The notes beneath the pieces are model-generated. The model was not told the origin of the DNA and made no database searches. It worked only from the letters and a program-made list of their open reading frames with translations. Of a stretch of DNA of 64,000 bases, positions 8,249-45,375 are shown one piece after another. A program made the position numbers and the translations under genes. Each line of letters begins with the position of its first letter. The first letter of the stretch is position 1. Source of the stretch: an uncultured Candidatus Poseidoniales archaeon (GTDB taxonomy: Archaea; Thermoplasmatota; Poseidoniia; Poseidoniales; Poseidoniaceae); contig CABYOM010000001.1 of the NCBI GenBank assembly GCA_902520595.1, positions 528 to 64,527 of the forward strand, in the 5' to 3' direction.

Positions 8249-8407
8249 TCAAACCTGATGTTTGATTCGCTTGTATGCACGGTGTTCCCACAGTCCCACC
8301 CTTTCAGGTGAGGTTTTCCGTAGGGAGGACCGAGTATGACTACCGTGCTTCACTTGACGCGAGCATGTCGCGTTCGAAAGTGCGCTCGGCGGCGCTCGAT
8401 ACCTGTT

Positions 8408-8710
8408 TCAACCGAAAAGGGAACCAAGACCGTCGAAACCGCCTGCTTCTTCTTCTTCCTCTTCCTCTTCAACAGGGGCAGGGGCGTCTGAAGAACCACC
8501 ACCAGCAGCTGCGGGAGCAGCGGCAGCAGGAGCGGCAACAGCCTGGGTCATTGCATCAGCGATGTCAACACCGTCAAGTGAAGCAACCAGTGCTTTCACT
8601 CGAGCGTCGTCAGCTTTCACGCCAGCAGCCTTTAGAATGGCGCTCACGGTTTTTTCGTCAATGTCTTTTTCAGCAGCGTGCAGTAGCATAGCAGCGTATA
8701 CGTATTCCAT
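8408..8710 (-). CDS. rpl12: Ribosomal stalk protein P1 (L12)
   Basis: 'MEYVYAAMLLHAAEK...' followed by an Ala/Pro hinge, a poly-Glu run and the C-terminal 'GFDGLGSLFG' typical of archaeal P1. Confidence 0.92.
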   Translation of the reverse strand: MEYVYAAMLLHAAEKDIDEKTVSAILKAAGVKADDARVKALVASLDGVDIADAMTQAVAAPAAAAPAAAGGGSSDAPAPVEEEEEEEEAGGFDGLGSLFG

Positions 8711-8733
8711 ATTTTTTCACCTCATTATTTAGT

Positions 8734-18122: not shown

Positions 18123-18206
18123 GCGGGGGTCGCCCAGCTTGGTCAACGGCGGTGGGTTTAGGTCCCATTCCTTATCGGTTCGCAGGTTCGAATCCTGCCT
18201 CCCGCA
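18123..18206 (+). tRNA. tRNA-Leu (anticodon UAG), class II with long variable arm
   Basis: Hand-folded. Acceptor GCGGGGG/CTCCCGC (one G-U), anticodon stem GTGGG/CCCAT with loop TT-TAG-GT, a 13-nt variable arm, T arm GCAGG-TTCGAAT-CCTGC and discriminator A. CCA is not encoded. Confidence 0.85.
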
Positions 18207-18245
18207 CTCTTTCAGTTTTAGAATACAGTCTCATCAGGTATTGAT

Positions 18246-33466: not shown

Positions 33467-35131
33467 TCACGCATCTGCCATGGCCTTCTCATCAGAAAGA
33501 CCTTTGAGTTCGACTGGATTCAACTCGATGATTGGCTGTGTTTTTGGATGGATTTTCAAGGCGAATTTCACGGGTAATTCTTTTTTCAATCGGATCAATC
33601 GCTTGTTTTCAGCAACGAGCTCTTCATTCACTTTTTGCATGTCTTCAACTTTCTGAATGAGTTCATTGACACGTTGTTCGAGCGCTTCACGTGCCGCAGA
33701 TTCCTTCTTCAGTTCTGATCGAAGCAGACGAGTTGTGTCTTCAATTTTGCCACCCAACTTCATTTGCAATGCTGCTCGAGCAGTGGATTCTTCCTTTACT
33801 TTCGTCGAAACCTGACTGATTTCTCTCTCAAGTTGGTCATGTGCACGAGAGAATTTATCCTTGATCGAATCAAAACTCTTACGGATTTGTGGAACCTTCT
33901 TTGACAACATATCATCAAGCTCACGGCTCAACTTATCGATGGTCTGGAACCGTGCTTCGAGAATATCATCCTCGTCTCCAAGTGCCTTGCGATGACTGTA
34001 AAGCAATCCTGGCATAATAAATGGAATTTCTTCCTTTCCTTTTACATTCTGGAAATAGCGCATTCGTGTCAAGAATTTATTGTACCGTGCTTCAAGGTCT
34101 TCACTGAGTTTTACAACCGCATTTGCAGATTGAGCATCTTCATTTCGTGCGGCTTTTTCCGAGATAAAAACCCCGTGTTCTTTTCGGAGCGGGTCAACAA
34201 CAACAGCGACAAAACGGCCGTCTTGACGGTTTGAGCGAAGATGGCCAAAGGTGTTGATATCAATTCCTGACAAGAAAATACCGATGTCTGGGTGAGTGTG
34301 AATCCATCCGATAATCTGAATGTTTGGAGTATGAGGGCCGCCACATCGACTGTTGGCCATATCACAAGCATCCATTGCCATAGCGAGAGCTCCTCCGTCA
34401 AATTCACAATACCCTGGACTTGCTTCAGTTTGTTTTGGAAAGAAACCACAGGTAACGACATTATTTCCATTATGGTCAATATGTCCAATCAACAAGCCAC
34501 CCATCTCAAGACGGCCGCGTGGCTGAGTGAACACTGTCGTTTGGTCAATAATTTCCTGAGGCACCAATGCTGGGTGGTCTTTCACTCGAGCCGTTCGGCG
34601 GCCTCCACCCGGAATACGTTGTGGAACGACAAAGAACGAACGGCCAATCATATCGTTGGCCATAAGATTGGATACAACTTCTTGGTGGTTATCGCGCACT
34701 TCTAAAGGAGAACCATCGCGAGGTCGCAGACCTGCTCTTTCAACGACCTGCATTACCGTCTCGCCAGGTTGTGGATTGATGTTATGTCGTGAACCATCTT
34801 GCATGATGAGGGTCAAATGTGCTTGTTTATTCGGGATTTCGTCAAGATCGATACCTTCGTCCCAATCGTCATCAAATTCAATTCCAGCCCCACCTGCAAC
34901 TTTCGCAACACCGACGTAAATGGTCGAGTCGCGATGCGCGGCAGCATTGTTATTCGAAATGACTGAACCCATCGCGTCATAAATGTCGAACTGTCCTTTC
35001 GGTGCGAGTTTCATATCCTGAACAGCTTGCTTCAGGGTGGCATTCTGAGGTACTTCGACCCGTTGCTTTTGGGTTTGATCAAGGGTGTTGGCTACAGTCA
35101 GGGGTATCATTTGGTTTTGCATGTTTTTCAT
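33467..35131 (-). CDS. Ubl-Ubl-JAB/MPN(JAMM) metalloprotease with C-terminal coiled coil
   Basis: Two beta-grasp-like units end in 'VAKVAGG' and 'VVPQRIPGGG'. The JAMM motif is complete: 'LEMGGLLIG' ... 'IIGWIHTHPDIGIFLSGID' (E, HxH, S, D). The last ~200 aa are heptad-rich. The likely true start is the second ATG (35122). Confidence 0.8.
   Translation of the reverse strand: MKNMQNQMIPLTVANTLDQTQKQRVEVPQNATLKQAVQDMKLAPKGQFDIYDAMGSVISNNNAAAHRDSTIYVGVAKVAGGAGIEFDDDWDEGIDLDEIPNKQAHLTLIMQDGSRHNINPQPGETVMQVVERAGLRPRDGSPLEVRDNHQEVVSNLMANDMIGRSFFVVPQRIPGGGRRTARVKDHPALVPQEIIDQTTVFTQPRGRLEMGGLLIGHIDHNGNNVVTCGFFPKQTEASPGYCEFDGGALAMAMDACDMANSRCGGPHTPNIQIIGWIHTHPDIGIFLSGIDINTFGHLRSNRQDGRFVAVVVDPLRKEHGVFISEKAARNEDAQSANAVVKLSEDLEARYNKFLTRMRYFQNVKGKEEIPFIMPGLLYSHRKALGDEDDILEARFQTIDKLSRELDDMLSKKVPQIRKSFDSIKDKFSRAHDQLEREISQVSTKVKEESTARAALQMKLGGKIEDTTRLLRSELKKESAAREALEQRVNELIQKVEDMQKVNEELVAENKRLIRLKKELPVKFALKIHPKTQPIIELNPVELKGLSDEKAMADA
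34886..35122 (-). repeat. Copy A of a ~237-bp near-identical duplication (Ubl-coding 5' end)
   Basis: Aligns with 35621..35857 at a constant offset of 735. I see only two mismatches (34889 vs 35624, and the atcctg/atactg change giving D to Y). Confidence 0.9.
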
Positions 35132-35194
35132 CTCCGTTTTGGGTTTTCAATTACTAATTTTGTGAAGTGTTTCTTATTCTGTTAAATTTGACAT
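35132..35194 (-). promoter_or_regulatory. Leader cassette 1: palindromic TATA-like motif (35180-35193) + GGAG RBS
   Basis: Minus strand reads TAG-ATGTCAAATTTAACAGAATAAGAAACACTTCACAAAATTAGTAATTGAAAACCCAAAACGGAGATGAAAAACATG. About 85-90% identical to 36310-36369. Confidence 0.5.
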
Positions 35195-35857
35195 CTAGGC
35201 GTTCAATAGATTTTGAATGTGATTGATGTAAGCACCAATCCGGCGAATAGGGTCGTTTCCAATTTGATTCAGATGTGGTAGAATCTGGCCATGACAAATC
35301 CAATGGCTTGGTTTATTGGTTCCTGGAAGCGTATTGCTTGAGCCTACTCCGTAGGAAACACTTGGCGTATTTCCATTAAAGATGGAGACACTGGGTCGTC
35401 GCGTGATTTGGTCGTGGTTGAGCACATATGCGTGAGGTAAGCCAGATGATGCGTTTGGGCAATGAATGGCAATTTGCCAAAAACCGTTACTGGTTTTTCC
35501 TTTGGATGGAAACTGAAGAGAAATCATAGAGGTATGAGTTGCGTTGGTATGAATTCGAACTGGGCGAAGAGATGGATACTCAACTTTGAGTTCTGCCAAC
35601 CGTTCACGCGGGATGCCTGAAGCTCCACCTGCAACTTTCGCAACACCGACGTAAATGGTCGAGTCGCGATGCGCGGCAGCATTGTTATTCGAAATGACTG
35701 AACCCATCGCGTCATAAATGTCGAACTGTCCTTTCGGTGCGAGTTTCATATACTGAACAGCTTGCTTCAGGGTGGCATTCTGAGGTACTTCGACCCGTTG
35801 CTTTTGGGTTTGATCAAGGGTGTTGGCTACAGTCAGGGGTATCATTTGGTTTTGCAT
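35195..35857 (-). CDS. Ubl-E2 (UBC-like) fusion protein
   Basis: The N-terminal 79 aa are identical, bar one residue, to Ubl1 of the JAB protein and end in 'VAKVAGG'. The remainder follows a UBC pattern: 'RERLAELKVEY', 'FWQIAIHCPNASSGLPHAYVL', 'SHWICHGQIL' (candidate catalytic Cys) and 'IGAYINHIQNLL'. Confidence 0.6.
   Translation of the reverse strand: MQNQMIPLTVANTLDQTQKQRVEVPQNATLKQAVQYMKLAPKGQFDIYDAMGSVISNNNAAAHRDSTIYVGVAKVAGGASGIPRERLAELKVEYPSLRPVRIHTNATHTSMISLQFPSKGKTSNGFWQIAIHCPNASSGLPHAYVLNHDQITRRPSVSIFNGNTPSVSYGVGSSNTLPGTNKPSHWICHGQILPHLNQIGNDPIRRIGAYINHIQNLLNA
35621..35857 (-). repeat. Copy B of the ~237-bp near-identical duplication
   Basis: See copy A (34886..35122). Confidence 0.9.
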
Positions 35858-35877
35858 ATTTCCATCTCCATGGGATT

Positions 35878-35988
35878 TCAGTTGTTGTTTTTTCGCGATT
35901 TATGATATCGGAAATTATTCGGATTCTTTTGATTCGATCGATTATCTCTTCTCTGTTTCTTTGTTTTTGCGTTCGCCATCTTTTTCAT
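35878..35988 (-). CDS. Tiny basic protein (33-36 aa), not in the ORF track
   Basis: Hand-translated as (MKK)MANAKTKKQRRDNRSNQKNPNNFRYHKSRKNNN*. It is preceded by the same GGAGATGAAAAAGATG leader and lies 21 nt after the acidic-protein stop. Confidence 0.4.
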   Translation of the reverse strand: MKKMANAKTKKQRRDNRSNQKNPNNFRYHKSRKNNN

Positions 35989-36009
35989 CTCCATTTTTAC
36001 TTCATATCG

Positions 36010-36309
36010 TCAATAATTGTTATCGTAATACTCTTCACGTTCATCGGGGGTGTCACCAGGCATGTCTGCATACTCAGCAGGTTCTTCTTCTGGATCGTAA
36101 GAGTCTTCATCTTCTTCGATATATTCGTCCCCTTCCTCGTAATCATCCTCGTAATCATCATCGTAATCATCATAGTCGTCATTCATGGTGTTCTGAGAAT
36201 CATCATAATCTTCTTTTGAGTCGTATCCGCGAGACTGATAGTAAGCGTCGTTGTTTGGGTTCATCTGGTTCGAGCGGTTATCATCTGAATGTTTTGACAT
36301 GTTTTTCAT
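36010..36309 (-). CDS. Hyper-acidic D/E/Y-rich small protein
   Basis: 99-aa ORF ('DDYDDYDDDYEDDYEEGDEYIEEDEDSYDPEEEP...') with its own leader cassette. Low complexity but on the correct strand with an RBS. Confidence 0.5.
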   Translation of the reverse strand: MKNMSKHSDDNRSNQMNPNNDAYYQSRGYDSKEDYDDSQNTMNDDYDDYDDDYEDDYEEGDEYIEEDEDSYDPEEEPAEYADMPGDTPDEREEYYDNNY

Positions 36310-36369
36310 CTCCGTTGGTTTTCAATATCTTATTTTGTGAAGTATTTCTAATTCTGTTAAATTTGACGT
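36310..36369 (-). promoter_or_regulatory. Leader cassette 2: motif 36355-36368 + GGAG RBS
   Basis: Minus strand reads TAA-ACGTCAAATTTAACAGAATTAGAAATACTTCACAAAATAAGATATTGAAAACCAACGGAGATGAAAAACATG. Confidence 0.5.
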
Positions 36370-36612
36370 TTAGCCATGACGTGGGCAAGACGAATCATTG
36401 CAACAGGCTCCGCAAGAATCGTTGATACAGTCAGCAGCAGCGAGATTACCGCAATCACATGTATCTGAGCACCCGCAATTGCAATTCTTGGAAGAAGAGC
36501 ATGTAGCCCCACCTGGTCCTTCATGGCATTCTTCATTAGCGGCAATACATGTGTCTCCACATGGTTTTCCGATACAGCATACTGGGTGTCCGTTATTTGG
36601 CATATTTTTCAT
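36370..36612 (-). CDS. Cysteine-rich small protein (20 Cys in 80 aa)
   Basis: 'PVCCIGKPCGDTCIAANEECHEG...NCNCGCSDTCDCG...CGACCNDSSCPRHG'. Has its own leader cassette. Metallothionein- or knottin-like composition; no family recognised. Confidence 0.55.
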   Translation of the reverse strand: MKNMPNNGHPVCCIGKPCGDTCIAANEECHEGPGGATCSSSKNCNCGCSDTCDCGNLAAADCINDSCGACCNDSSCPRHG

Positions 36613-36671
36613 CTCCGTTGGTTTTCATAATCTTGGGTTGTTAAGATTCCAGATAGTTGTTAAATTTGATA
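36613..36671 (-). promoter_or_regulatory. Leader cassette 3: motif 36658-36671 + GGAG RBS
   Basis: Minus strand reads ...TTATCAAATTTAACAACTATCTGGAATCTTAACAACCCAAGATTATGAAAACCAACGGAGATGAAAAATATG. The motif lies inside the 3' end of the upstream ORF. Confidence 0.45.
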
Positions 36672-37096
36672 ATCTCGGATAATGGCCGAGGATCGATACT
36701 TTCTCCTGTTTGTGAATCAAACAGTTTGTATGATGCTGATTTTCTATCTCTGTGCGCGAAAATTAGTCGTCCATGTCGATGCTTACCGTTCGCTTTGACG
36801 TGTTTGCTCCAAGAGATATAGAGTGCCTGAACTAAGATTGTTAATCCTGTAATGTATACGATACAATGAGAAAATAATCCAAATGAATTCAATACTCGAT
36901 CGGTAACTCGAATATGTTCTTCAAGATTCATGACTTCCTCGACCGTATTTGGGAATATGCTCTGACTGACAACTTCTGAAGTTAATTCAGAGATAATCTC
37001 GTGCCTGTTATCGGTCAAACTGAGTTCTACAATGTTTTGATAACCGCCTCCACAAGAAGCAATCACATCACTAATAATAAAAGACAATTTAAGCAC
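36641..37096 (-). CDS. Hypothetical protein with one central TM helix
   Basis: 151-aa ORF with a GTG start that overlaps the preceding small basic ORF by 8 nt. TM 'FSHCIVYITGLTILVQALYISW'. Confidence 0.45.
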   Translation of the reverse strand: MLKLSFIISDVIASCGGGYQNIVELSLTDNRHEIISELTSEVVSQSIFPNTVEEVMNLEEHIRVTDRVLNSFGLFSHCIVYITGLTILVQALYISWSKHVKANGKHRHGRLIFAHRDRKSASYKLFDSQTGESIDPRPLSEIIKFNNYLES

Positions 37097-37253
37097 CCAC
37101 CTTTGCAGTATGTTGTTTTACATCTTTCATGGTCAGGAGGTAGCTTTTCTCTTCTCGGAAGACTTTCCAAGAAGATTTATTTTTCTTGAAACGACGCTGC
37201 GTTTTCGGTTTGTTCATTGTACTCGTTTTTGTTTTTCGGTATGTTCGGGACAT
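37089..37253 (-). CDS. Small basic protein (54 aa)
   Basis: 'MSRTYRKTKTSTMNKPKTQRRFKKNKSSWKVF...'. The ATG at 37253 is preceded by GGAAGTGAACAAATG, the same RBS context as the 221-aa gene. Confidence 0.4.
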   Translation of the reverse strand: MSRTYRKTKTSTMNKPKTQRRFKKNKSSWKVFREEKSYLLTMKDVKQHTAKVGA

Positions 37254-37300
37254 TTGTTCACTTCCTTCATACAATGGCCTCAACCAGAAGATGAGTTTTC

Positions 37301-37314
37301 ATTAAAATTGACAA
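37301..37314 (-). promoter_or_regulatory. Palindromic TATA-like motif copy (TGTCAATTTTAAT on coding strand)
   Basis: Sits 47 nt upstream of the ATG at 37253, immediately after the stop of the 221-aa gene. Confidence 0.4.
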
Positions 37315-37318
37315 AAAG

Positions 37319-37984
37319 CTAGAATATCCAAGCCAATAACTCACCAGCATAGGACAATATACCGACGATGACCCAGACAAGGAGTGCTATAATTGCAATA
37401 AAGAACCAAATTATGAACTCAAGAATTTCGTAGATGAATTCGAATATACTGATAATAAATTCGAATACACTACCTATGAAGTTTGCAACTGCCACTAGAA
37501 AATCAACGAACGATACACCAACTTCCCATAGGAATTCTAAGAATGCCCAAATTTCTTCAAATATCGGCAGAAGGGCGTTGAAAGCAAAGTAAGCACCACC
37601 CAGGATTAAGCCCATTACGGTGACAAAAACGATCGCTTCGAAAATTTCTGGTATTGACGAAAGAATGTTACCAAACAGGGAATTTTTTTCTGCCTGAACA
37701 GGATTTTGAGGCCGTTCAAATCTTTGATTATTTTGACCTAATTCAATTCTCCGATTCTTTTTCCCATGCTTTTTACAATAACGTGAACTGCAACATAATC
37801 TGCATGAATTGGTAATGCAAGTGCGGCTACCGGTGTTCCCACATTTACATCGAGGCTGCGGGTTGGCAACTCTTGGTTTGATCATTTTCGGATTTATATC
37901 CAAGAGAATTTTTGCAGGGAAGGGATTGATTGATCCCGCATCGGGATTTTCAAAAAGGTCTGCAAGGTCAATCCCTTCTTCCAT
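37319..37984 (-). CDS. Cys-rich N-domain + multi-TM membrane protein (candidate effector)
   Basis: N-terminal 'CKCGNTGSRTCITNSCRLCCSSRYCKKH'. The C-terminal ~110 aa are very hydrophobic with reiterated 'FEFI' ('SVFEFIISIFEFIYEILEFIIWFFIAII'). Confidence 0.55.
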   Translation of the reverse strand: MEEGIDLADLFENPDAGSINPFPAKILLDINPKMIKPRVANPQPRCKCGNTGSRTCITNSCRLCCSSRYCKKHGKKNRRIELGQNNQRFERPQNPVQAEKNSLFGNILSSIPEIFEAIVFVTVMGLILGGAYFAFNALLPIFEEIWAFLEFLWEVGVSFVDFLVAVANFIGSVFEFIISIFEFIYEILEFIIWFFIAIIALLVWVIVGILSYAGELLAWIF

Positions 37985-38039
37985 ATGTTCACTTCCAATT
38001 TGTTGTTACTTTCTCATTCGATAACGAAGAGAAAAAGAA

Positions 38040-38052
38040 ATTAAATTTGATA
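38040..38052 (-). promoter_or_regulatory. Palindromic TATA-like motif copy (TATCAAATTTAAT)
   Basis: Sits 55 nt upstream of the ATG at 37984. An RBS-like GGAAGTGAACATATG follows. Confidence 0.4.
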
Positions 38053-38059
38053 ATGAATC

Positions 38060-38248
38060 TCACGCCGAGGAATGAGTGACGGAAAGGAGAACATGTCCAC
38101 ACTCACAACGAGGAAGTTCAATTCCTGTGAACACCATACGTTCTCTGTAAGCGCTGATATCAACGGGAATCTTTTGACCACAACGGCAAACCAGGATAGA
38201 AACCCACTTTCCTTGAGATTCGACTTCATCATCAATCCAAAGTCTCAT
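38060..38248 (-). CDS. Small Zn-ribbon protein (CxC...CxC), translationally coupled to E1-A
   Basis: 'MRLWIDDEVESQGKWVSILVCRCGQKIPV...LPRCECGHVL'. Its ATG (38248-38246) overlaps the E1-A TGA (38247-38245) as ATGA. Confidence 0.55.
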   Translation of the reverse strand: MRLWIDDEVESQGKWVSILVCRCGQKIPVDISAYRERMVFTGIELPRCECGHVLLSVTHSSA

Positions 38249-39801
38249 TCCATCCCCTCCGCCTTTGTGATTGATTGAGGGGGGGCATTCGTGTCTTCTT
38301 GGTCCCAAAGAGCATTTTCAAGTTGTTGAACACCGTCTTTTCGAGATACAATTCCCTGCGAAAGATTGCAATACACTTCATTATAACGCGCATTCCAATT
38401 GACCGAGCCAATACTCGAAATGTTTTGCCCTGTCAGGCGCTGAAGAGCAGAAATAGCTTGTAGAGAGCCTACAAAAGCGTTGGTAATGGCGAGTGAGGAA
38501 AGGGGTACTTCGCCATCTTCTTGACACGAATATACAACCTGGTCATGAGCAACTGAAGGACCATATATTTCGACTAAATTCGTATTTGAAAATTCGGTAT
38601 ATTGTGCAAACAATCCTGTGATTCCTCCGTTTACATACGGTTGATTTTTCCGAGCAGCGATCAAATCAGCAAGAACGCGAGGGCGCATTGCATCAAGACA
38701 GCCAAGAATAGCATCAGTGTGTTCAAGTTGAAGCCGTATTCCATCATCATTCAAAACCTCATAGTGTTGAAGAATGGATTCATCAGTGTCGAAAAGCAAT
38801 TCATCAAGGGCAAATCCTTCTTCTTCATCGGTTTCAACGGTGTTTTGAGGAGATTGAAGGAGGCCATCATGCAGTTCGTAAGCGATTGAAATTTCGGCGT
38901 CGGGAAGGTTGCGATTCAACCAGTCTTTAGCAGCTTCAATTTTTGGCCTTCCAATATCTGCTTCGGAAAAAATAACTTGCCGGTTGAGATTATGACGTTC
39001 AACTTCCATATCTTTATCGAAAACAAGAAGTTGCAGATCACTAAAATTAGAATTTTTTAATCCATTCACGATCGAATGCAGCGCCCACGTACCTAAGCCT
39101 CCTGCCCCAACGATGGTCAAATGACCTGAAGGGTTGGTCTTTGGTTCAGGGAGCGTAAAACGCATGACTGGAAATTTAGGATGAATATTTTCATCCCCAC
39201 CATACACCTGAAGTTTCTTGAGAAGTTCTTGTACCAAGGGAGTATCATCATCTAAACGCATCATTACTCGCTTATGGCCGGTTCCGTCATTTACAGAACG
39301 GATGTTGATGTGAGAATTAATTCCTTCAAGTTGGAAATCGAGATGATTGATACTTCCTTTCATCGAAGGCTCGTTCACCCGAACATTCACTGAAACGGAG
39401 ACTTTTGGCACATCGACTGGAGTGTAGCACTTGGCTCGTCGAAAAATCTCACTCCAAATCAAGCATGCTGAAAGAGTAGCTAGAGAGGGTTCAAAAATCG
39501 GATGAGCGGGTTTTTCGCAAGGTGTGCCGTCGAGAAATACGCCTCCTTGGCCATAGGATACAAGTATCATTGATGGGTCATGTTTCCATTCGAAATCTAT
39601 TGAATCATGAACCCATGAAAGAGTAAATTCCGAGCCTTCAGATTTACTCGGGAAATTCTTTACTCCCAATTGGTCAGCTAATTGCTTCATGGAGTGTTTC
39701 AATGCCTGTGGAATTGATTCCTCATCCACGAAAGTCACGTTTAGTGATTCTACTCTCTCTTGGTGAACCAGACCCCGTTGTCGACTAAAGATATCACTCA
39801 T
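38245..39801 (-). CDS. E1-like (ThiF/MoeB/UBA-family) adenylating enzyme A, two-lobed
   Basis: The C-terminal half has 'LTIVGAGGLGTWAL', 'DKDMEVERHNLNRQ', 'DIGRPKIEAAK', 'CLDAMRPRVL' and 'SCQEDGEVP'. The N-terminal half starts with the ThiF-type 'FSRQRGLV' but lacks GxGxxG. Its ATGA overlap with the Cdc48 stop places the start at 39801. Confidence 0.8.
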   Translation of the reverse strand: MSDIFSRQRGLVHQERVESLNVTFVDEESIPQALKHSMKQLADQLGVKNFPSKSEGSEFTLSWVHDSIDFEWKHDPSMILVSYGQGGVFLDGTPCEKPAHPIFEPSLATLSACLIWSEIFRRAKCYTPVDVPKVSVSVNVRVNEPSMKGSINHLDFQLEGINSHINIRSVNDGTGHKRVMMRLDDDTPLVQELLKKLQVYGGDENIHPKFPVMRFTLPEPKTNPSGHLTIVGAGGLGTWALHSIVNGLKNSNFSDLQLLVFDKDMEVERHNLNRQVIFSEADIGRPKIEAAKDWLNRNLPDAEISIAYELHDGLLQSPQNTVETDEEEGFALDELLFDTDESILQHYEVLNDDGIRLQLEHTDAILGCLDAMRPRVLADLIAARKNQPYVNGGITGLFAQYTEFSNTNLVEIYGPSVAHDQVVYSCQEDGEVPLSSLAITNAFVGSLQAISALQRLTGQNISSIGSVNWNARYNEVYCNLSQGIVSRKDGVQQLENALWDQEDTNAPPQSITKAEGME

Positions 39802-41987
39802 GGTATCACCCACTCGCCTTCATCATCATTATCGTCATCCCAATCGTCATCAAGAATCACATTCTTTTCAACGGAGGCAACGGCTCTCAACAAATGACGT
39901 GAAACGCGAAGACCTTGTTCCAAATCTTCTGTTTTCAGACATACCTCGGTCTTTTCAGCGATGCAGCGACGAGCTGAACAATGCTTGATTTGATCAATGA
40001 ATCCCTTCAATTCTGCACCTGTGGCTTTGTCTCTCAAACGAAGAACTGTGTTCAACCATTCTTGATTGGAAATAGTTGATGGAATATCTTCAATCTGGTA
40101 TTGGAAGAACTCAAAGAAGAGGTCATTGGTGAGTGGCCCAACCTCAATGGATTTACTGAAGCGCCCTGGGCGCAAAAATGCTTCATCGACCAGTTCGATT
40201 TTGTTGGTAGACGCCATAAGATAAATCCCATCTGCAGGCTTCAATCCATCCATCATGGTCAACAATTGAGCCACAACGGAACTCGAATGATGAGCACCTT
40301 CGGAATTATCTCGGTTTCGACCTACTGCGTCGAACTCATCGAAAAACAAGACAACTGGGGCGAGTTCTTCCGCTCGTTGGAACAATTCTCGAACAGCGCG
40401 TTCACTTTCACCAACCCACTTGGACAAGAAATCCGGTCCAGATACGGCCATGAATTGTACGTTTGCCAAACTCGCAGCTGCGCGACCAAGCATGGTTTTA
40501 CCAGTACCGGGCGGTCCGTGAAGCAGGACACCGCCGGAACATGAAAGACCGAGAGATGCATAGATTTCAGGATTGTTAATGGGGTGAACAAGGTGATCGA
40601 TAATCTCGCTTTTAGCACTCGCATGCCCAATCACAGCATCCATTTCAACACGGCCCATTGTTGCCGGACGGCGTTGCTGTGTTGCCCAAGGAGTAAATTT
40701 CTCAAATGCTTGTTCAAAGTCTACAGTCAAGATTTTTAGCCCTTCTAGTTCCCTTTCAGTGAAGTTTTCAGGATTCGTAAGTCTTGGCAGACCGAACTCA
40801 CGATGAAGTCCTTCACCACTCGCATGGCGGCACAAGTTCGCCAGGTCTGCACCGGTGCAGCCTACTGTTTTCATAGCCCAATCGGAAAGGGAAACTCCTT
40901 CCAATGGCATGTTTTTAGAATGTATTTCAAGGATTTTCTCACGGCCATTAACATCAGGATAAGGGACGTGGATTCGGCGGTCAAACCGGCCTGCACGAAG
41001 AAGGGCGGGATCAATTGTTTCGAGAAGATTTGTCGAACCAACGACCAAAACTTGCCCTCGGTCTTCAAACCCATCCAGTTGAATAAGAAGTTCAGTCAAT
41101 ATTCGCTTTTCAAGTTCACCACGACTGTTCTTACGGTCTCCGGCAATAGCATCGATTTCATCGATATAAATGACAGAAGGAGCTTCTCGCTTCGCTTCAG
41201 CAAACTTTTCACGAAGAGCTTGTTCAGAAGCACCGTATACACCACTGATAATTTCAGGGCCACTGATACAGATAAAATTGCATTGAGCCTCTCGGGCTAA
41301 AGCACGTGCAAGGAGCGTTTTTCCTACACCGGGCGGGCCGTAAAGAAGTATTCCTCGCGGAGGTTCCTGTCCCGATTTAACATAAATTTCAGGGTGGATA
41401 AGTGGTACAATTGCAATCTCTTTAATCGCTTCAATGGTTTTGTCAAGTCCACCTATGTCATCAAAAGAAACCGATGGGACATCAATAATTGAACGTCGTG
41501 ACTTTTTACCAATAATTTGGATGTCGATGTCAGGGGTGAGCCAACCATGCTGTGGGCGGCAACGTGTAACTTGAAGTTCGAGTGGCTCTCCATTCAGAGA
41601 AACTGTAAAGTGGTCATCTTTGGAAAGATAAACATCACGAATTGCCGCCTTAACGAGGGGCATTTCGTGGTCTTCGAGGGAACGAGTTGTAGGTTGAATT
41701 CGGACCTTAGCAAATGGGCCTTGAACCTTGAGGTGATCAATCTCAACGGAATCGCCTTCATTGATTTGCGCGTTGATTCGAAGAGTAGGCCCAAGGGCAA
41801 CTGAATCGTAAGGAATGTTCGGGTCGTATCGCAAAACCGCAACCGTGGTTTTTTGGCCTATAATTCGTACAGGGGAACGGCTCGCATAACCGTTGTCTTC
41901 AGCCGCTTGCGTATTCATGTAAACATCGTCTCCAGCTCCGCCATCAATCATTGGTGCAATACAGGTAAATTGGTTCATAATAATCAT
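39798..41987 (-). CDS. Cdc48/p97/VAT-like double-ring AAA+ ATPase
   Basis: N-domain pattern ('VRIIGQKTTVAVL...RINAQINEGDSVEI'). D1 has 'LLYGPPGVGKTLLARA...VIYIDEIDAI'. D2 has 'LLHGPPGTGKTMLGRA...VLFFDEFDAV'. The acidic tail is 'DDDWDDDNDDEGEWVIP'. Confidence 0.88.
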   Translation of the reverse strand: MIIMNQFTCIAPMIDGGAGDDVYMNTQAAEDNGYASRSPVRIIGQKTTVAVLRYDPNIPYDSVALGPTLRINAQINEGDSVEIDHLKVQGPFAKVRIQPTTRSLEDHEMPLVKAAIRDVYLSKDDHFTVSLNGEPLELQVTRCRPQHGWLTPDIDIQIIGKKSRRSIIDVPSVSFDDIGGLDKTIEAIKEIAIVPLIHPEIYVKSGQEPPRGILLYGPPGVGKTLLARALAREAQCNFICISGPEIISGVYGASEQALREKFAEAKREAPSVIYIDEIDAIAGDRKNSRGELEKRILTELLIQLDGFEDRGQVLVVGSTNLLETIDPALLRAGRFDRRIHVPYPDVNGREKILEIHSKNMPLEGVSLSDWAMKTVGCTGADLANLCRHASGEGLHREFGLPRLTNPENFTERELEGLKILTVDFEQAFEKFTPWATQQRRPATMGRVEMDAVIGHASAKSEIIDHLVHPINNPEIYASLGLSCSGGVLLHGPPGTGKTMLGRAAASLANVQFMAVSGPDFLSKWVGESERAVRELFQRAEELAPVVLFFDEFDAVGRNRDNSEGAHHSSSVVAQLLTMMDGLKPADGIYLMASTNKIELVDEAFLRPGRFSKSIEVGPLTNDLFFEFFQYQIEDIPSTISNQEWLNTVLRLRDKATGAELKGFIDQIKHCSARRCIAEKTEVCLKTEDLEQGLRVSRHLLRAVASVEKNVILDDDWDDDNDDEGEWVIP

Positions 41988-42021
41988 TCCATCTTGTTAT
42001 TTCTTTGAGATTCTAGTTTTT

Positions 42022-42035
42022 TGTTAAATATGATA
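42022..42035 (-). promoter_or_regulatory. Palindromic TATA-like motif copy (TATCATATTTAACA)
   Basis: Overlaps the last codons and stop of E1-B, 34-43 nt upstream of the Cdc48 start. Confidence 0.35.
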
Positions 42036-43568
42036 TTTGCAAGGTTCATCAAACCAAGGCGGCTGGGTTGGAGCGAATTGTTCAATCTGTCCTTCGAACC
42101 AGGTGCCTCGGAAATTACGATCTTTGTAATCGGGATTCAAATTCATCATCGTCAGTAAAGCCATCATAGAACCAACCCATGCCGTTGAAGTCACAATTGA
42201 AGCAATTGGTCGAATACCCTCTTCAGTACAAGAGATTACTTCGCTTGAGCGAGCGTTTTCTTTACCATAACGGCAAACCATGCAACCTTTTTGACCGAAG
42301 GTTTCAACGACTCCATGAAGTGCTTCAGTTGCACCATTTATCATGACACGCCCATTGTTAATTGCAGCCTCATTCAGAATTGTTCGAGCGACCATGTTGT
42401 CAAGACAAGCGAGATATATGCTGCTCTTACTTAATGCGTCAAACAACAGTGAAGGTTCAAGCCCGAGGTCATCAAACTCTTCCTCAAAATCGAAATCCTC
42501 TTGCACCAAATGATGTGGAGTGAGATACTCAAAATACGATTCAACATGAATCTTGAGATTCAGTGATTGGAGCTGTTGAGCAGCGGTCAATGCTTTCATT
42601 GAACCAACGTGGGTTTCATTGTAGAGTACTTGGCGATTGAGATTATGAAGTTCTATTTCTGCATCGCCATCGACAACGTGAATCGTTCCTTCTTCCATCT
42701 GCTCAACAAGTAAAGGGGCGCTCCAACTGCCAAGTCCACCTGCTCCCAAGAGGACGATATCATGACCAGAAAGAGACCATGAGGAATCGAATACCTCAAC
42801 AGGTGCATCCCATGGGATCAAACCCAAATCATCTGAAACTGAAAGTTGTTTTTGCGAAGACTGCATCGTTCGAGAAAGGAAATCAAAAGGACTCAAGTTT
42901 GGTTGAGTCGATGGTCGATATCGAGCAAGTGTCGCATGACCATCGCTGGTTAATTGCACGTCAACCAGTGTCCCATCAATTCCCGTGATATGTTTTCTCA
43001 CTTCTTCAAAGTCCGTAGATTCAACGCGGCATGTGACTGTAAACCATGCGTCGCTAATTTTCATGTGGGCCATACAATCAGCATCTCGAAGCATTTGTTG
43101 TAACATTGTTGCAGCTACAGCCACTCGCATCGATGGAGTAAGAACATGCTCTGAATAAATGGGGGATGGCGAAAGAGGTTGACGAGAAATTTTCGCTCGA
43201 ACTCCTTTCGCATAACCATAAAGATCAGCATGTTGAATGGCATGTGACGGATTCAGGCAAAGATGGTAGTCAAATGAAAGAGGTTCAGATTCTTTTAATG
43301 AGGTAAAGGTCTGACGAAACTGAGGACTTTCTTGCTCCCAATCCTCCCATCGCTTCGCGTTTGGAAAAGTAAGTTTCCAAAACACAGAATCCGGCAGAAC
43401 ATTTGGTCGGAGTACTCCGATGAATCCTGACTCTTGCCCTATACCAAACTGCGAGAGGAGAACAAGAAGGTCGCTTACGCCACCAGAGCTTCCAGAAACG
43501 AGTATTTTCAGATTTGAAACTTGTTCTTGGTCAACAAGACCTCGTTGGCGTCGATATTTATCATTCAT
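42024..43568 (-). CDS. E1-like adenylating enzyme B, two-lobed paralog
   Basis: 'YRRQRGLV' then degenerate 'ILVSGSSGGVSDL' in the N-lobe. The C-lobe has 'IVLLGAGGLGSWSA', 'DGDAEIELHNLNRQ', 'CLDNMVARTIL', 'GCMVCRYG' and 'SCTEEGIRP'. The start is taken at 'MNDKYRRQRGLV'. Confidence 0.8.
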   Translation of the reverse strand: MNDKYRRQRGLVDQEQVSNLKILVSGSSGGVSDLLVLLSQFGIGQESGFIGVLRPNVLPDSVFWKLTFPNAKRWEDWEQESPQFRQTFTSLKESEPLSFDYHLCLNPSHAIQHADLYGYAKGVRAKISRQPLSPSPIYSEHVLTPSMRVAVAATMLQQMLRDADCMAHMKISDAWFTVTCRVESTDFEEVRKHITGIDGTLVDVQLTSDGHATLARYRPSTQPNLSPFDFLSRTMQSSQKQLSVSDDLGLIPWDAPVEVFDSSWSLSGHDIVLLGAGGLGSWSAPLLVEQMEEGTIHVVDGDAEIELHNLNRQVLYNETHVGSMKALTAAQQLQSLNLKIHVESYFEYLTPHHLVQEDFDFEEEFDDLGLEPSLLFDALSKSSIYLACLDNMVARTILNEAAINNGRVMINGATEALHGVVETFGQKGCMVCRYGKENARSSEVISCTEEGIRPIASIVTSTAWVGSMMALLTMMNLNPDYKDRNFRGTWFEGQIEQFAPTQPPWFDEPCKYHI

Positions 43569-43572
43569 TTTA

Positions 43573-44127
43573 TCACCGGGTTCGAGCGCGATCATCGGGG
43601 TTTGGATTTTTCAATACATCCTCAATTTGATGCAACAAAAAACCTAATTTTTCCTTCTCTGTTTGATAGGTTGCAAATTGTTCAGAAAACCCTGGGCCCA
43701 TACACACCCCACATATTTCTCTTTGAGGAAGAATGTTGTATCTCCCTTTTTCAAAGATATTCTCGTGTAAAATATTCTCACACTTTGGTGTCAAAATGAA
43801 TACCTGTGGCGCTTCTGAAAAGGAACGTGAATCAATAAGAATTTGATAGTTCATCGCGGTGTAATCTCGGCTTGAGACAACACCCTGAAGATTGACAACA
43901 AAAGCTCCTACTGTGGTTTTTGAACTGTGGTCACGAATTAGATTAAGCGAAGGGTAAGAAGTTAATTTAAAACTATCAAACACTGCTTTCGATAAACTCG
44001 AACCCGAACGAACTCGAAGAGGGACAAGGTACTCATTCCGACTGTTTTCTCGGCTTCGCTCTGCCTCAGATGCTCTACGCAGAAAATCGCCATTGCCATT
44101 AAAAATTCCATATTCTTCATTATCCAT
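43573..44127 (-). CDS. UBC-fold E2-like ubiquitin-conjugating enzyme
   Basis: 'NYQILIDSRSFSEAPQVFILTPKCENILHENIFEKGRYNILPQREICGVCMG...LGFLLHQIEDVLKNPNPDD' follows the E2 core pattern: Y.i.i...P.v.f, H(P)N(I), a catalytic Cys, and ..LL..PNPDD. The track start is a GTG at 44136. Confidence 0.7.
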   Translation of the reverse strand: MDNEEYGIFNGNGDFLRRASEAERSRENSRNEYLVPLRVRSGSSLSKAVFDSFKLTSYPSLNLIRDHSSKTTVGAFVVNLQGVVSSRDYTAMNYQILIDSRSFSEAPQVFILTPKCENILHENIFEKGRYNILPQREICGVCMGPGFSEQFATYQTEKEKLGFLLHQIEDVLKNPNPDDRARTR

Positions 44128-44170
44128 ATTCTTCACTTCACTTTTTTGATTTCTTGAAACCGTTTCATAT

Positions 44171-44184
44171 CATTAAATTTGACA
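44171..44184 (-). promoter_or_regulatory. Palindromic TATA-like motif copy (TGTCAAATTTAATG)
   Basis: Overlaps the stop of the 369-aa gene, 43 nt upstream of the ATG at 44127. Confidence 0.4.
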
Positions 44185-45282
44185 AGAGGGGTGAGTTCTT
44201 GGCACACCTTCAATTATCAACATACGCTTATTCGACGCATTGCGTGATATCCTAGCCACGGCCCATTGCCCCTTGGGATCAACCGAGATTCCAGGTTTCA
44301 AAGCGTAAGACATCTTAAGAGGGGAGTTTGGATGATGAATATTGTACAATTGGATAGGTTCCTCTGACTCAGGAACCTTGACAAAGACATAATGCCCATC
44401 TTGGTAATACGGTCGATTCACTAATGCAGGAGAGTTTTTCCGAGCGAAACGGACGAGGACTCCCTCACAAGATGCCCCTTTTTTCGGAGTGTTTCCTGAG
44501 ATGAGAGCACGTTGCCAACCGCCCGAGGGTTGGAGAACACTGCCTTTGAAGATACTTTGATTCTCTTTCGCTACCGAAGGAATCTTCATTTTACATGGAA
44601 CTGGTTTAATCTTCATTTTGTTGTATTTCTTGCCTATTTTGGGTTGATTGTTGTGCGGTTTGAAGCTAGATGGAACTGGTGTTAGGTCTGGACGGAAGAC
44701 CACGGTTTTACTTGCCTCCGCGTTACGAATTTCGCAGCATCCCCAAAATCCTCGAATACGTTCAATATCGGCGCATTGATAATTCACTTTGATATCTTCT
44801 TGTCCTGTTTGAGGATTGAATAGCGATACTGTATTTCCTTTTCTTGGCGCTTGTGCAAAGACGATGTCTCCGTCTAGATACGGTTCTCCTTCAGTTCGAA
44901 AACGGTACGCATAGGTACCATTTTTTTGATTACGAGGCGTGATGAATACATTGATGTAATCTCCAACCTCAATTCCTGGAATGATAAGTTTGGTTCCATC
45001 CAAGCATTCAGTTCCTGTAAAAGGGCCTTTCAAATTTGTTTCGCCCCAAATTGATTCTACGCGCTTCAACATCCCCAAATGGATCGTAGTCGGTGCTTTT
45101 CCTACGAGTTGATGGTTCAGTGAGTTTCCATGTTTATCCATAGCATACCTCAAACTACCATCTCGAGGTAAAAGGCCAGATTGACTCATTGCCTCATATA
45201 CAGTTGAAGTTTCATCCACGAGAACACGTGTTGAAAGGGTCTCATTTGAATCAAGAATAAACCTCACTTCTCGTAGAGACAT
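44173..45282 (-). CDS. Ubl-domain protein with beta-rich repeat region (possible substrate adaptor)
   Basis: The N-terminal ~75 aa are beta-grasp-like and similar to Ubl2 of the JAB protein ('GLLPRDGSLRYAMDKHGNSL' vs 'GLRPRDGSPLEVRDNHQEVV'), with no terminal GG. The rest is unrecognised. Confidence 0.5.
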   Translation of the reverse strand: MSLREVRFILDSNETLSTRVLVDETSTVYEAMSQSGLLPRDGSLRYAMDKHGNSLNHQLVGKAPTTIHLGMLKRVESIWGETNLKGPFTGTECLDGTKLIIPGIEVGDYINVFITPRNQKNGTYAYRFRTEGEPYLDGDIVFAQAPRKGNTVSLFNPQTGQEDIKVNYQCADIERIRGFWGCCEIRNAEASKTVVFRPDLTPVPSSFKPHNNQPKIGKKYNKMKIKPVPCKMKIPSVAKENQSIFKGSVLQPSGGWQRALISGNTPKKGASCEGVLVRFARKNSPALVNRPYYQDGHYVFVKVPESEEPIQLYNIHHPNSPLKMSYALKPGISVDPKGQWAVARISRNASNKRMLIIEGVPRTHPSCQI

Positions 45283-45375
45283 GCCTTGTTAAGCCAATGA
45301 GAAACTGAAAAACTGTTAAAATTAACAAAGTTTGGCCGTCATAGTAACTAAATAATATAGAAAGGAGGAACACTT
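45283..45375. promoter_or_regulatory. Divergent promoter region with perfect-armed palindrome TGTTAA-AA-TTAACA (45314-45327)
   Basis: Lies between the first minus-strand gene and the CARF-like/wHTH gene. The + side has AAATAATATAG and an AAAGGAGG RBS before the ATG at 45376. Confidence 0.5.

Follow-up and report, generated by a model that had tools for sequence, protein, structure and literature searches.

The 64,000-nucleotide window analysed here, from an uncultured Candidatus Poseidoniales archaeon (GenBank assembly GCA_902520595.1, contig CABYOM010000001.1, positions 528 to 64,527 of the forward strand), carries between positions 33467 and 45282 a block of 12 or 13 co-oriented minus-strand genes that appears to encode a ubiquitin-like (Ubl) protein modification system. 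Its open reading frames (ORFs) encode two ThiF-type activating enzymes (E1a and E1b), a Cdc48/VAT-type double AAA+ ATPase, a JAMM peptidase, two proteins resembling conjugating enzymes (E2a and E2b), a small CxC...CxC protein and four Ubl domains. It is very likely, as far as sequences can tell, that these form a working system in which the Ubls are processed by the JAMM protein, activated by the E1s and passed on through the E2 cysteines. Furthermore, we regard it as probable that the block represents an undescribed, cysteine-dependent system of Ubl conjugation, deconjugation and unfolding, carried on an accessory island and most likely serving in defence, conflict or stress. The latter role is put foremost because the block is part of a larger accessory island and has an invariable Cas10-like partner. 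Full-text searches of the literature found no description of this cluster; for a single-cell Marine Group II genome, only RING and UCH genes were reported (Grau-Bove et al., PMC4327156).

An earlier note on this DNA, made from the letters alone, had read the region as a eukaryote-like, multi-component ubiquitin-type cluster of archaeal origin with all its parts on one strand. The minus-strand ORFs bear out every part that it listed. An archaeal host is supported by a Pus10 gene in the window and by the genome matches, which are all Poseidoniales or Thermoplasmatota metagenome-assembled genomes (MAGs). Pfam families were recognised for four genes of the block (E1a, E1b, the Cdc48-like gene and the JAMM gene), while the remaining genes had no family match in Pfam or PADLOC 2.0. 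Because the Ubls and E2s are sequence orphans, E2a and the Ubl1-E2b precursor were modelled structurally with AlphaFold2 (AF2), the quality of the models being given as the predicted local distance difference test (pLDDT). The coordinates of the features are collected in the table.

Among species-representative genomes, 22 related loci were found in 15 assemblies, labelled as Poseidoniales, Poseidoniaceae or Poseidonia or, more broadly, as Thermoplasmatota, Methanobacteriota or euryarchaeote. Conservation was judged from an ORF-by-ORF comparison of 27 loci, which are referred to below by their numbers. In the order that is conserved, g397 and g556 stand on the opposite strand and are followed by Ubl369, E2a (with or without a fused Ubl), E1a, Cdc48, E1b and the zinc-ribbon protein, then by variable small genes (TM221, g151, cys80 and acid99), Ubl-E2b and Ubl-Ubl-JAMM, and lastly by the convergent g765. 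Across the 15 assemblies this gene set persists at 41-57% protein identity (40-60% as the broader range), also through a rearrangement in L007, and the duplication of E1 and E2 and the embedded Cdc48, to which the first reading had drawn attention, are kept across divergent loci. Since the flanking genes, including g765 beyond the JAMM gene, are conserved together with the block, the functional unit is larger than the 12 kb first proposed; the position of the core was right, but the system extends to 31124-33421 on one side and to 45376-48236 on the other. The full gene set was found in Poseidoniales only, other archaea having simpler relatives. No relatives were present on IMG/VR viral contigs, and a viral or proviral origin was rejected. 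Several genes of the system are split in L003 and L016, reflecting either pseudogenisation or assembly errors.

Table. Positions of the genes and sequence elements of the Ubl-Cdc48 block and its neighbourhood in the 64,000-nucleotide window (aa, amino acids; nt, nucleotides; RBS, ribosome-binding site)
Feature	Position	Strand	Basis or remark
g902, 902 aa	28354-31062	+	PADLOC CARF_PDDEXK, PD-(D/E)xK nuclease part only, at residues 561-721, 7.9e-6
g765, Cas10-like palm-domain protein, convergent with the JAMM gene	31124-33421	+	family alignment, sub-threshold Pfam
Ubl1-GG, acidic linker, Ubl2-GGG, JAMM and coiled coil in one protein	33467-35122 (ORF to 35131)	-	Pfam JAB, 6.5e-7
241-nt direct repeat, two Ubl1-coding segments	34886-35126 and 35621-35861	.	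repeat scan, 99% identical
Promoter/RBS cassette with GGAGATGAAAAACATG	35118-35198; also 35972-36021, 36293-36373, 36596-36645	-	repeat families D2, D5
Ubl1-GG-E2b precursor, 220 aa	35195-35857	-	AF2 (pLDDT 86), Foldseek, hhalign
Basic 38-aa ORF	35878-35994	-	ORF list
acid99, small, very acidic	36010-36300 (ORF to 36309)	-	cassette upstream; L006 homologue
cys80, about 20 Cys, CxCGN...CC...CxxH motif as in TM221	36370-36603 (ORF to 36612)	-	homologues, cassette upstream
g151, conserved	36641-37096	-	orthologues 57-83% identical in L001, L003, L004; no Pfam match
TM221, N-terminal MEEGIDLADL, Cys-rich insert CxCGNx6Cx4Cx2CCx4Cx2H, hydrophobic C-terminal half	37319-37984	-	homologues, no Pfam match
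CxC...CxC zinc-ribbon-like protein, 62 aa from MRLWIDD	38060-38248	-	four Cys invariant in 6 orthologues; always after E1b
E1b, second long E1, paralogue of E1a	38245-39813	-	Pfam ThiF, E = 6.1e-23
Cdc48/VAT-type unfoldase, N + D1 + D2	39798-41987	-	Pfam AAA, two stretches, E = 3.6e-82
E1a, long E1, unassigned N-terminal domain of about 265 aa + ThiF adenylation domain	42024-43595	-	Pfam ThiF, E = 5.4e-35
E2a, stand-alone UBC-fold E2-like protein, 184 aa from the real ATG	43573-44127 (ORF to 44136)	-	AF2 and Foldseek
Ubl369, N-terminal Ubl-like domain without C-terminal GG, then about 285 aa, beta-rich	44173-45282	-	hhalign to Ubl2
Palindrome TGTTAAAATTAACA, g556/Ubl369 divergent intergenic region	45314-45327	.	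2 matches vs 0.21 expected
g556, C-terminal winged helix, divergent from the Ubl block, candidate regulator	45376-47046	+	Pfam on homologue, synteny
g397, always after g556	47043-48236	+	syntenic in L001, L003, L004, L007; no significant Pfam match
g593, orphan protein, 593 aa	48257-50038	+	same low-GC island
2049-aa ATPase, several P-loop, helicase and STAND-like segments	50031-56180	+	PADLOC mad8, 1.5e-7

Ubl domains number four rather than three as first counted, Ubl1 occurring twice, next to Ubl2 and the N-terminus of Ubl369. In the structure model Ubl1 (residues 1-78) adopts the ubiquitin beta-grasp, matching ubiquitin, SUMO, ISG15 and NEDD8 with a Foldseek probability of 1.0 and template-modelling (TM) scores of 0.5-0.63; Caldiarchaeum ubiquitin is also among its fold matches. 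By sequence, the Ubl profiles have no detectable similarity to ubiquitin and no Pfam ubiquitin match, and neither the Ubl nor the E2 profiles found an E2 or any other solved relative in the Protein Data Bank (PDB). Ubl2, which occupies residues 98-178 of the JAMM protein, was linked to Ubl1 by hhalign (94.7%), and the N-terminal 85 residues of Ubl369 were linked to Ubl2 (hhalign 94.0%, E = 1.4e-7; BLASTP E = 0.001). Ubl1 ends in an invariant VAKVAGG that sits exactly at the junction with E2b in one protein and with the remainder of the JAMM protein in the other, while Ubl2 ends in a conserved PGG immediately ahead of the JAMM domain. Other genomes vary this theme, some having Ubl1-Ubl2-E2b proteins of about 315 residues and sister genomes having Ubl1-E2a fusions. 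Like the two Ubl1 copies of the window, those of L001 are nearly the same (99-100% identical to each other), and between genomes Ubl1 is only about 60-70% identical. As the copies are near-identical within a genome and divergent between genomes, they point to concerted evolution of one mature modifier. Ubl369, which had no Pfam match, is the first gene of the block and lies upstream of the E2 and E1 genes in L001, L004, L007, L009, L013 and L021; it may serve as an adaptor or substrate receptor.

The JAMM site, complete as the first reading had it (E, HxH, S, D), consists of E209 and H278-T-H280-x7-S288-x2-D291, which are invariant in all seven of the orthologues aligned, as are both GG sites. 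The Pfam JAB match lies above the gathering score (29.6 vs 22.5 bits), and the solved relatives are Rpn11 (4.8e-8), CSN5 (1.3e-7), AMSH-LP and the Caldiarchaeum Rpn11-like protein (7e-6), with no prokaryotic JAMM or Cap3 among the structure matches. PADLOC JAB models matched at 3.6e-5 or weaker, and residues 390-515 were matched by coiled-coil-type Pfam and PADLOC models only. The protein is predicted to be both the processing and the deconjugating peptidase. Since in Type I Bub it was established experimentally that the JAB domain cuts the Ubl-E2 fusion after a conserved Gly (PMC11601596), processing of the Ubl precursors by the JAMM protein is the obvious inference.

Both E1s keep the motifs with which the earlier note had identified them (GxGxxG, NLNRQ and the crossover-loop Cys). 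In E1a these are GAGGLG at 284, HNLNRQ at 317, CLDN at 397 and C456 in the crossover loop (SCTEEG), together with CMVC at 438-441 and a C-terminal PCKYH, while E1b has GAGGLG at 236, HNLNRQ at 274, CLDA at 372 and C430 (SCQEDG). The nucleotide-binding motifs, the aspartate of CLD(N/A) and the crossover-loop Cys are invariant in the alignments of 13 E1a and 10 E1b orthologues; CMVC is invariant in E1a, which has PCxxH at its C-terminus, and E1b has neither of these and no CxxC zinc motif. In a HMMER pairing of E1b with MoeB, the Cys of SCQEDG stands opposite the MoeB Cys in T-C-VEAG. Judged by this crossover-loop Cys, both proteins are predicted to be canonical thioester-forming E1s. Both belong to the minimal kind of E1, whose Cys lies in the crossover loop and which has neither an inserted Cys domain nor a C-terminal ubiquitin-fold domain. 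The closest solved structures of E1a by sequence search are PaaA (4e-12) and ThiF (7e-8), followed by Uba4 and MoeB; all such matches of the E1s (PaaA, ThiF, MoeB, UBA3, UBA5) are weak and confined to the nucleotide-binding core.

Over the ThiF domain, E1a and E1b share 29% identity, and they have in common a helix with an N-terminal RQRGLVxQ motif (hhalign 95%) in an N-terminal domain of about 225-265 residues. Pfam gave no match for eight of these N-terminal domains, and their reading as inactive adenylation domains in the manner of BilD or Uba1 was rejected (hhalign of N- against C-terminal domains <1%). The E1a family holds roughly 15 full-length representatives at 50% identity (E<=1e-47), and the long-E1 family is wider, as proteins of 500-620 residues align full-length with E1a at 24-26% identity.

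E2a residue numbers follow the 187-aa ORF. The strings by which E2a had first been recognised (H-E-N-I, ICGVCMG and LLHQIEDVLKNPNPDD) are all present, and the protein has H124-E-N126, a conserved C145 (GVCMG) and an NPNPDD tail. Its 28 relatives are all at least 52% identical. Neither E2a nor E2b had a Pfam match at E <= 0.1. The AF2 model of E2a has a pLDDT of 70, and the top 30 Foldseek matches in the PDB were E2, UEV, Atg3, UFC1 or Cap2 proteins (best E = 0.02, probability 0.95-0.98, TM 0.4-0.5), including Cdc34, UBE2L6, UFC1, Atg3, TSG101-UEV and Cap2. Among the annotated matches in BFVD, giant-virus E2s lead. There is thus moderate support from modelling for a UBC fold in E2a, weaker than that for the beta-grasp of Ubl1 but consistent over two libraries. 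A Ubl decayed within the first 45 residues of E2a was considered, given the Ubl-E2a fusions of sister genomes, and rejected at an hhalign value of 3% only. Two tandem E2a genes are present in some lineages (L004/L005, 5922-7075; L003, 9283-10520).

The second protein, E2b, is the C-terminal half of the Ubl1-E2b precursor. It bears C188 in the motif WICHG, invariant in 32 of 32 aligned sequences from a family of 95, and has no HxN motif. Profile comparison links it to E2a by way of the sister-genome Ubl-E2a fusions, which match E2a at 100% and E2b at 96.6% (hhalign), the direct comparison of E2b with E2a giving 75.5%. In the AF2 model the E2b domain runs from a helix through four or five strands to further helices, and the Foldseek matches of the full 220-aa model are dominated by its Ubl domain rather than by E2b. 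These links agree with the original count of two E2-like proteins, the first by its UBC-fold matches and the second by the profile comparison. A single Cys column is common to E2a (C145), the Ubl-E2a fusions, E2b (C188) and a 146-aa Thermoprotei homologue, and an 88-aa Thermoprotei E2-like fragment has Asp there. C145 is the only E2a cysteine that both the Thermoprotei homologue and E2b retain, C142 and C119 not being kept in the Thermoprotei relative; of the two cysteines in ICGVCMG, only the second is therefore conserved family-wide. The HxN motif is invariant in E2a and conserved throughout the E2 alignment except in E2b, and its Asn lies 19 residues from the Cys in E2a vs 8 in canonical E2s.

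The embedded ATPase belongs to the VAT/p97 family both by Pfam and by its solved relatives, as had been supposed. The closest of these is Thermoplasma VAT (3.7e-140; best-scoring stretch at query residues 111-435, from the end of the N domain into D1), followed by Cdc48/p97 (about 1e-125). The N domain itself fell below threshold in the window (CDC48_N 5e-4, CDC48_2 0.037), while the L030 homologue has CDC48_N on record. The window protein contains two Walker A motifs, and each of its rings has an aromatic pore loop (GVYGASE in D1, KWVGESE in D2). An acidic C-terminal tail is conserved, ending in ...DDDWDDDNDDEGEWVIP in the window and in (D/E)WV(I/V)P in the orthologues, one of which ends in Q. 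The orthologue alignment contains no HbYX (hydrophobic residue-Tyr-any residue) motif at this end, the penultimate residue not being Tyr. We infer from the strict synteny and the overlapping reading frames that the ATPase is coupled to the Ubl system. Short acidic motifs recur in the Cdc48 tail (DDDWDDD..EWVIP, 39798-39870), in the linker between Ubl1 and Ubl2 (DDDWDEGIDLDEI, 34830-34890) and in TM221 (MEEGIDLADL, 37950-37984). At the DNA level some of this recurrence shows up as repeat family D3, and the motifs may dock onto a common partner.

From these parts a mechanism can be proposed. Ubl1 is encoded as a GG-ended N-terminal fusion to E2b and to the Ubl2-JAMM protein, and in sister lineages to E2a, as the sequences themselves show. 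The Rpn11/CSN5-like JAMM domain would cut after GG, freeing Ubl1 and probably Ubl2, and would later strip them from targets. E1a (C456) and E1b (C430) would adenylate the Ubl C-termini and form thioesters, from which the Ubl would be passed to C145 of E2a or C188 of E2b and then to target lysines, with no RING-type ligase (E3) taking part. Finally, the Cdc48/VAT ATPase would engage the tagged proteins and unfold or extract them, possibly with Ubl369 as a UBX-like adaptor and TM221 as receptor, target or effector.

The presence of two Ubls, two E1s and two E2s suggests two parallel arms. Alternatively, E1a and E1b might form one heterodimer, as do SAE1/SAE2 and APPBP1/UBA3, serving a single cascade with one Ubl in which E2a and E2b provide target specificities. 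Such an arrangement would fit the constant co-occurrence of the two E1s, which have only Cdc48 between them and whose reading frames overlap, as well as their common two-domain layout as paralogues and the fact that, across genomes, fusions to both kinds of E2 occur with Ubl1 only. Nonetheless, in known heterodimeric E1s one subunit has lost the very features, namely the full nucleotide-binding motifs, the Mg-binding aspartate and the crossover-loop Cys, that E1a and E1b both keep, and a single E1 suffices in each of the simpler loci L028 and L029. Because catalytic residues are present in both E1s and there are two distinct GG-ended Ubl types (Ubl1 and Ubl2), the two-arm arrangement is favoured, and a heterodimeric E1 is considered doubtful.

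The whole system lies within a low-GC stretch of about 28-56 kb between core genes, flanked by KatG and a class-V aminotransferase on one side and by an RND transporter and Pus10 on the other. Its most constant neighbour, g765, adjoins the JAMM gene in every locus that has downstream sequence (L001, L016, L026 at 2165-4162 and L027 at 1571-3733), and another homologue (7719-9725) is found in L029, which is differently arranged. Within the g765 family of 81 members, an alignment of 41 sequences revealed invariant DxNxxG..F and AGDD motifs and a consensus SFGAG. Csm1_B was matched by 12 of the 41 (best 2.3e-4) and Cas10-Cmr2_palm2 by 11 of the 41 (best 4.5e-4), in the right order and in all cases below the gathering scores. 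Comparison with the PDB yielded no solved relative, either with the single sequence or with a profile. With moderate confidence, we call g765 Cas10-like. No other cas genes and no CRISPR array were seen near members of the family, nor was a type III effector complex, and g765 could be a stand-alone Cas10-type cyclase tied to Ubl conjugation.

Every prokaryotic E1-E2-JAB-Ubl operon that has been characterised acts against phages (PMC11601596). Along with these precedents (Bil, Bub and CBASS), the accessory island, the Cas10-like and nuclease-like neighbours and the decayed copies favour a defence or conflict role, to which, on such circumstantial grounds, we give an even chance or slightly better. 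Several observations weigh against this reading and against the conjugation system as a whole. PADLOC models are not matched over their full length by any of the components, g765 stays under the Pfam thresholds for a Cas10-like protein, and neither a CRISPR array nor a CARF domain was detected. The E2a model is of moderate quality (pLDDT 70, Foldseek E about 0.02, TM 0.4-0.5), the fold of E2b is supported by profile homology and secondary structure only, and Ubl2 and the Ubl369 N-terminus were assigned by hhalign (about 94%) rather than from a structure model. Likewise, no E3 (no Pfam RING match) and no target was identified, and a Cdc48 that ends in ..EWVIP without HbYX does not indicate coupling to the 20S proteasome.

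It might also be that the block is a eukaryote-like housekeeping pathway of proteostasis, resembling endoplasmic-reticulum-associated degradation, in which a Ubl tag leads to extraction by Cdc48 and then to the proteasome, and which would be a relative of the eukaryotic ubiquitin-Cdc48 axis. Thermoplasmatota pair VAT/Cdc48 with the 20S proteasome, and the set includes a Cdc48/VAT-family ATPase with aromatic pore loops in both rings as well as TM221, a membrane protein with a Cys-rich cytosolic domain. This alternative overlaps with the eukaryote-like reading of the earlier note, which holds good for the JAMM domain closest to Rpn11, CSN5 and AMSH, for the HxN, Cys and PNPxD motifs of E2a and for the GG-ended Ubl precursors with their concerted evolution. 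It does not hold for the Ubls and E2s, which have no sequence similarity to ubiquitin or UQ_con, nor for the minimal E1s without the eukaryotic Cys domain and ubiquitin-fold domain, and the absence of a RING E3, the Type I Bub precedent and the placement in an accessory island speak against it as well. A housekeeping role is further at odds with the Cas10-like, nuclease-like and giant-ATPase neighbours in the low-GC island, with the fragmented copies in some MAGs and with a Cdc48 that has no HbYX tail, and it seems to us unlikely.

That the E1s instead serve cofactor sulfur transfer or a modification of the kind made on ribosomally synthesised and post-translationally modified peptides (MccB, PaaA), with the small ORFs as substrates, is highly improbable, as the resemblance of E1a to PaaA (its best solved match, 4e-12), ThiF, Uba4 and MoeB is confined to the nucleotide-binding core, and the MoeB/ThiF-like CxxC of E1a, the small ORFs (38, 77 and 96 aa) with their common cassette and DNRSNQxNPNN motif and a class-V aminotransferase gene that borders the low-GC island from outside are set against two Cys-bearing UBC-fold proteins, a JAMM peptidase, GG-ended beta-grasp Ubls and a Cdc48 that are conserved together. 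The earlier note had named findings that would refute its own reading, namely the lack of UBC or beta-grasp folds, or a grouping of the E1s with MoeB/ThiF sulfur-transfer enzymes together with molybdopterin or thiamine genes beside the cluster elsewhere. These checks did not refute it: the predicted folds are beta-grasp and UBC, and molybdopterin or thiamine genes occurred in 0 of roughly 20 related loci. Neither the window nor the related loci contain a MoaD, MoaE, ThiS, ThiG or rhodanese gene.

Returning to a role in defence or stress, the Ubl-Cdc48 module and the Cas10-like enzyme might be joined in one immune or stress pathway of a new class, in which nucleotide signalling or a Cas10-like sensor leads to tagging and then to ATP-driven unfolding or extraction of the tagged proteins, perhaps viral ones or a membrane effector such as TM221. 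This is a tentative proposal, and rather improbable as it stands. If true, no earlier prokaryotic system would have joined Ubl conjugation to a Cdc48 segregase of its own, and the pathway would be an independent, or even ancestral, instance of the eukaryotic logic of tagging followed by extraction.

Signals for common regulation were also found. A cassette of 50-80 nt precedes the JAMM gene and three small ORFs, and its 16-mer was observed four times against 0.22 expected. Because an in-frame ATG lies inside the Shine-Dalgarno region of this cassette, three spurious 'MKNM' starts arise there. The 'MKNM' N-termini in general stem from ORF calling and are not real, since ATG or GTG codons in frame precede the true starts, for four small genes inside the repeated cassette. 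A palindrome lies between the divergently transcribed genes g556 and Ubl369, and a second copy with one mismatch is found upstream of the JAMM gene (35180-35193). The form TGTTAA-NN-TT(A/G)ACA occurs at the same intergenic positions in L001 (8809-8822 and 18402-18415) and L004 (4671-4684), that is in L001/L002 and L004/L005. The palindrome might serve as an operator bound by the winged-helix protein g556 or as a promoter element, and cassette, palindrome and divergent g556 together point to co-regulation. A g556 homologue in L007 matches Pfam HVO_A0261_N (2.2e-6) and HTH_45, g556 of the window is weakly EarA-like, and homologues 28-76% identical hold the same position in L001, L003, L004, L007, L009, L013 and L021.

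The small genes of the block are more variable. The zinc-ribbon gene noticed at first sight is present, but encodes 62 residues, as in L001, rather than 82; the protein has no Pfam match. TM221, which has homologues 26-31% identical in L004 (two copies), L007, L011 and L012, often straight after Ubl-E2b, is probably membrane-bound and may act as effector, receptor or target. For the Cys-rich cys80, identity to L009 and L019 reaches 78-81%, against only about 40% for the E1s of these loci. The Cys motifs of TM221 and cys80 do not match RING spacing, and they resemble the plant SHI/STY zinc finger, a likeness that no Pfam match supports. Acid99 and the basic 38-aa ORF have an N-terminal DNRSNQxNPNN motif and the upstream cassette in common, and could be targets, regulators or a toxin/antidote-like pair.

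Of the outer neighbours, the 2049-aa ATPase and g593 keep their synteny with the Ubl block in L001 and, less strictly, in L003, and no homologue of g902 was seen in the other loci. A Lys/Glu-rich 24-nt tandem repeat lies within g902 at 30526-30594. CARF domains in the g556 N-terminus, g902 and g593 were looked for and rejected (no Pfam or PADLOC CARF match, hhalign <1%), the match of g902 being to the nuclease part only, and L029 genes were likewise rejected as equivalents of g556 or g397 (hhalign <1%). The sole RNA gene detected in the window is a tRNA-Leu (18123-18207, plus strand), away from the island.

Simpler relatives of the cluster occur in other archaea. L028, a 12.6-kb Thermoprotei MAG locus, has a long E1, an E2a-like protein (hhalign 98%), two JABs and Ubl-like genes without Cdc48, and also encodes a 768-aa Ser/Thr protein kinase and a truncated, Cys-less E2-like paralogue. 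In L029, on a Tara contig, four genes share a strand in a second architecture: they encode an E1b-like protein, a Ubl (hhalign 95%), a JAB with 41% identity and a relative of g765.

Among described systems, the cluster resembles in its architecture Type I Bub (BubAB, BubCD and BubE; formerly '6E.1'/DUF6527; Ye et al., PMC11601596), in which the Ubl is likewise fused N-terminally to E2 and the JAB/JAMM domain frees it after a conserved Gly, a cleavage that the precursors of the Poseidoniales cluster make probable. One to three beta-grasp domains per Ubl, an E2 with a diverged UBC fold without C-terminal helices, the lack of an E3 and a defence-linked setting are also common to the two. However, the E1 and E2 of Type I Bub have no catalytic Cys and work through Ser/Tyr oxyesters, while here each E1 and each E2 has a conserved Cys; the JAB of Type I Bub is fused to E1, and that of the cluster to Ubls and a coiled coil. 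Type I Bub also has the DUF6527/BubE protease, of which the cluster contains no Pfam match, and it is a bacterial system with one E1, one E2 and no Cdc48, as against an archaeal one with two of each and a Cdc48.

Like the cluster, Bil (BilABCD) combines Ubl, E2, JAB and E1 with Cys chemistry, no E3 and possible tandem beta-grasps. BilD, however, has an inactive and an active adenylation domain with an inserted mobile Cys domain, whereas the E1s of the cluster have a crossover-loop Cys and an N-terminal domain without detectable adenylation similarity, and Bil has neither the Cdc48 nor the duplicated enzymes. In PADLOC 2.0 the BilD model matched E1b only (E = 0.0028, residues 231-301, about 70 residues), and no Bil-named model (BilA, BilB or BilC) matched the Ubl-bearing, E2 or JAB proteins. 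The best defence-library matches of E1a were E1-E2 models (1.7e-9) covering about 85 residues of the ThiF core only, and the nearest relatives of E1a outside its family were rejected as Cap2 or BilD, their PADLOC core matches being weak only.

Type II CBASS (Cap2, Cap3 and CD-NTase) provides a parallel in that E1/E2/JAB chemistry is coupled genomically to an enzyme of nucleotide-cyclase type. Its Cap2 is an E2-E1 fusion, though, while E2 and E1 are separate genes in the cluster; its partner is a cGAS-like CD-NTase, none of which is present here, where the partner is Cas10-like; and it conjugates the CD-NTase C-terminus, while the cluster has true Ubls and, in addition, a Cdc48.

The operons of Caldiarchaeum subterraneum and Asgard archaea (PMC3082918, PMC5654768) are also archaeal and also bring together Ubl, E1, E2 and an Rpn11-like JAMM. 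Their ubiquitin and UQ_con E2 are recognisable by sequence and they have a RING E3, whereas the cluster has no Pfam ubiquitin, UQ_con or RING match. They further contain one E1, one E2, no Cdc48 and no fusions of Ubl to enzymes, and the cluster differs in each of these points. Sampylation in Haloferax (SAMP/UbaA/JAMM; PMC4895103, PMC4443979) is again archaeal, with a ThiF-type E1 that has a crossover-loop Cys, a JAMM deconjugase and a functional tie to Cdc48-type unfoldases and the proteasome. It has no E2, its SAMPs are of the MoaD/ThiS type and are shared with sulfur transfer, and its genes are dispersed, in contrast to the E2s and the single locus described here. With the eukaryotic ubiquitin-Cdc48/p97 pathway, the cluster has in common the processing of GG-ended precursors, E1, E2 and an unfoldase of the same family with an acidic C-terminal tail, and, purely by analogy, the non-conjugatable Ubl369 could act as eukaryotic UBX/UBL adaptors do. 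The homology seen is at the level of fold or family only; the architecture of the E1s differs and the cluster has no E3s.

Marine Group II archaea are among the most abundant planktonic archaea and are still uncultured, and this would be, if functional, among the first candidate defence systems defined for them. The E1-E2-JAB-Ubl operons Bil, Bub and type II CBASS were recently shown to be antiviral and have been discussed as antecedents of eukaryotic ubiquitination. To our knowledge, a dedicated Cdc48-type unfoldase has no precedent in such operons, and the literature searches found none. To these operons the cluster adds a Cys-based archaeal version with duplicated E1 and E2, Ubls fused to their own enzymes and an Rpn11/CSN5-like peptidase. 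If functional, it would make testable the existence, outside eukaryotes, of a logic of tagging followed by unfolding or extraction, as well as the division of labour between two E1/E2 arms and a possible wiring of Ubl conjugation to Cas10-type signalling. Of Bil, Bub, Type II CBASS and the Caldiarchaeum-type operon, each has defining features that the cluster lacks. New in the cluster are a Cdc48 within the block, the duplication of both E1 and E2, Ubls fused to an E2 as well as to the JAMM protein, and a Cas10-like partner that is always there.

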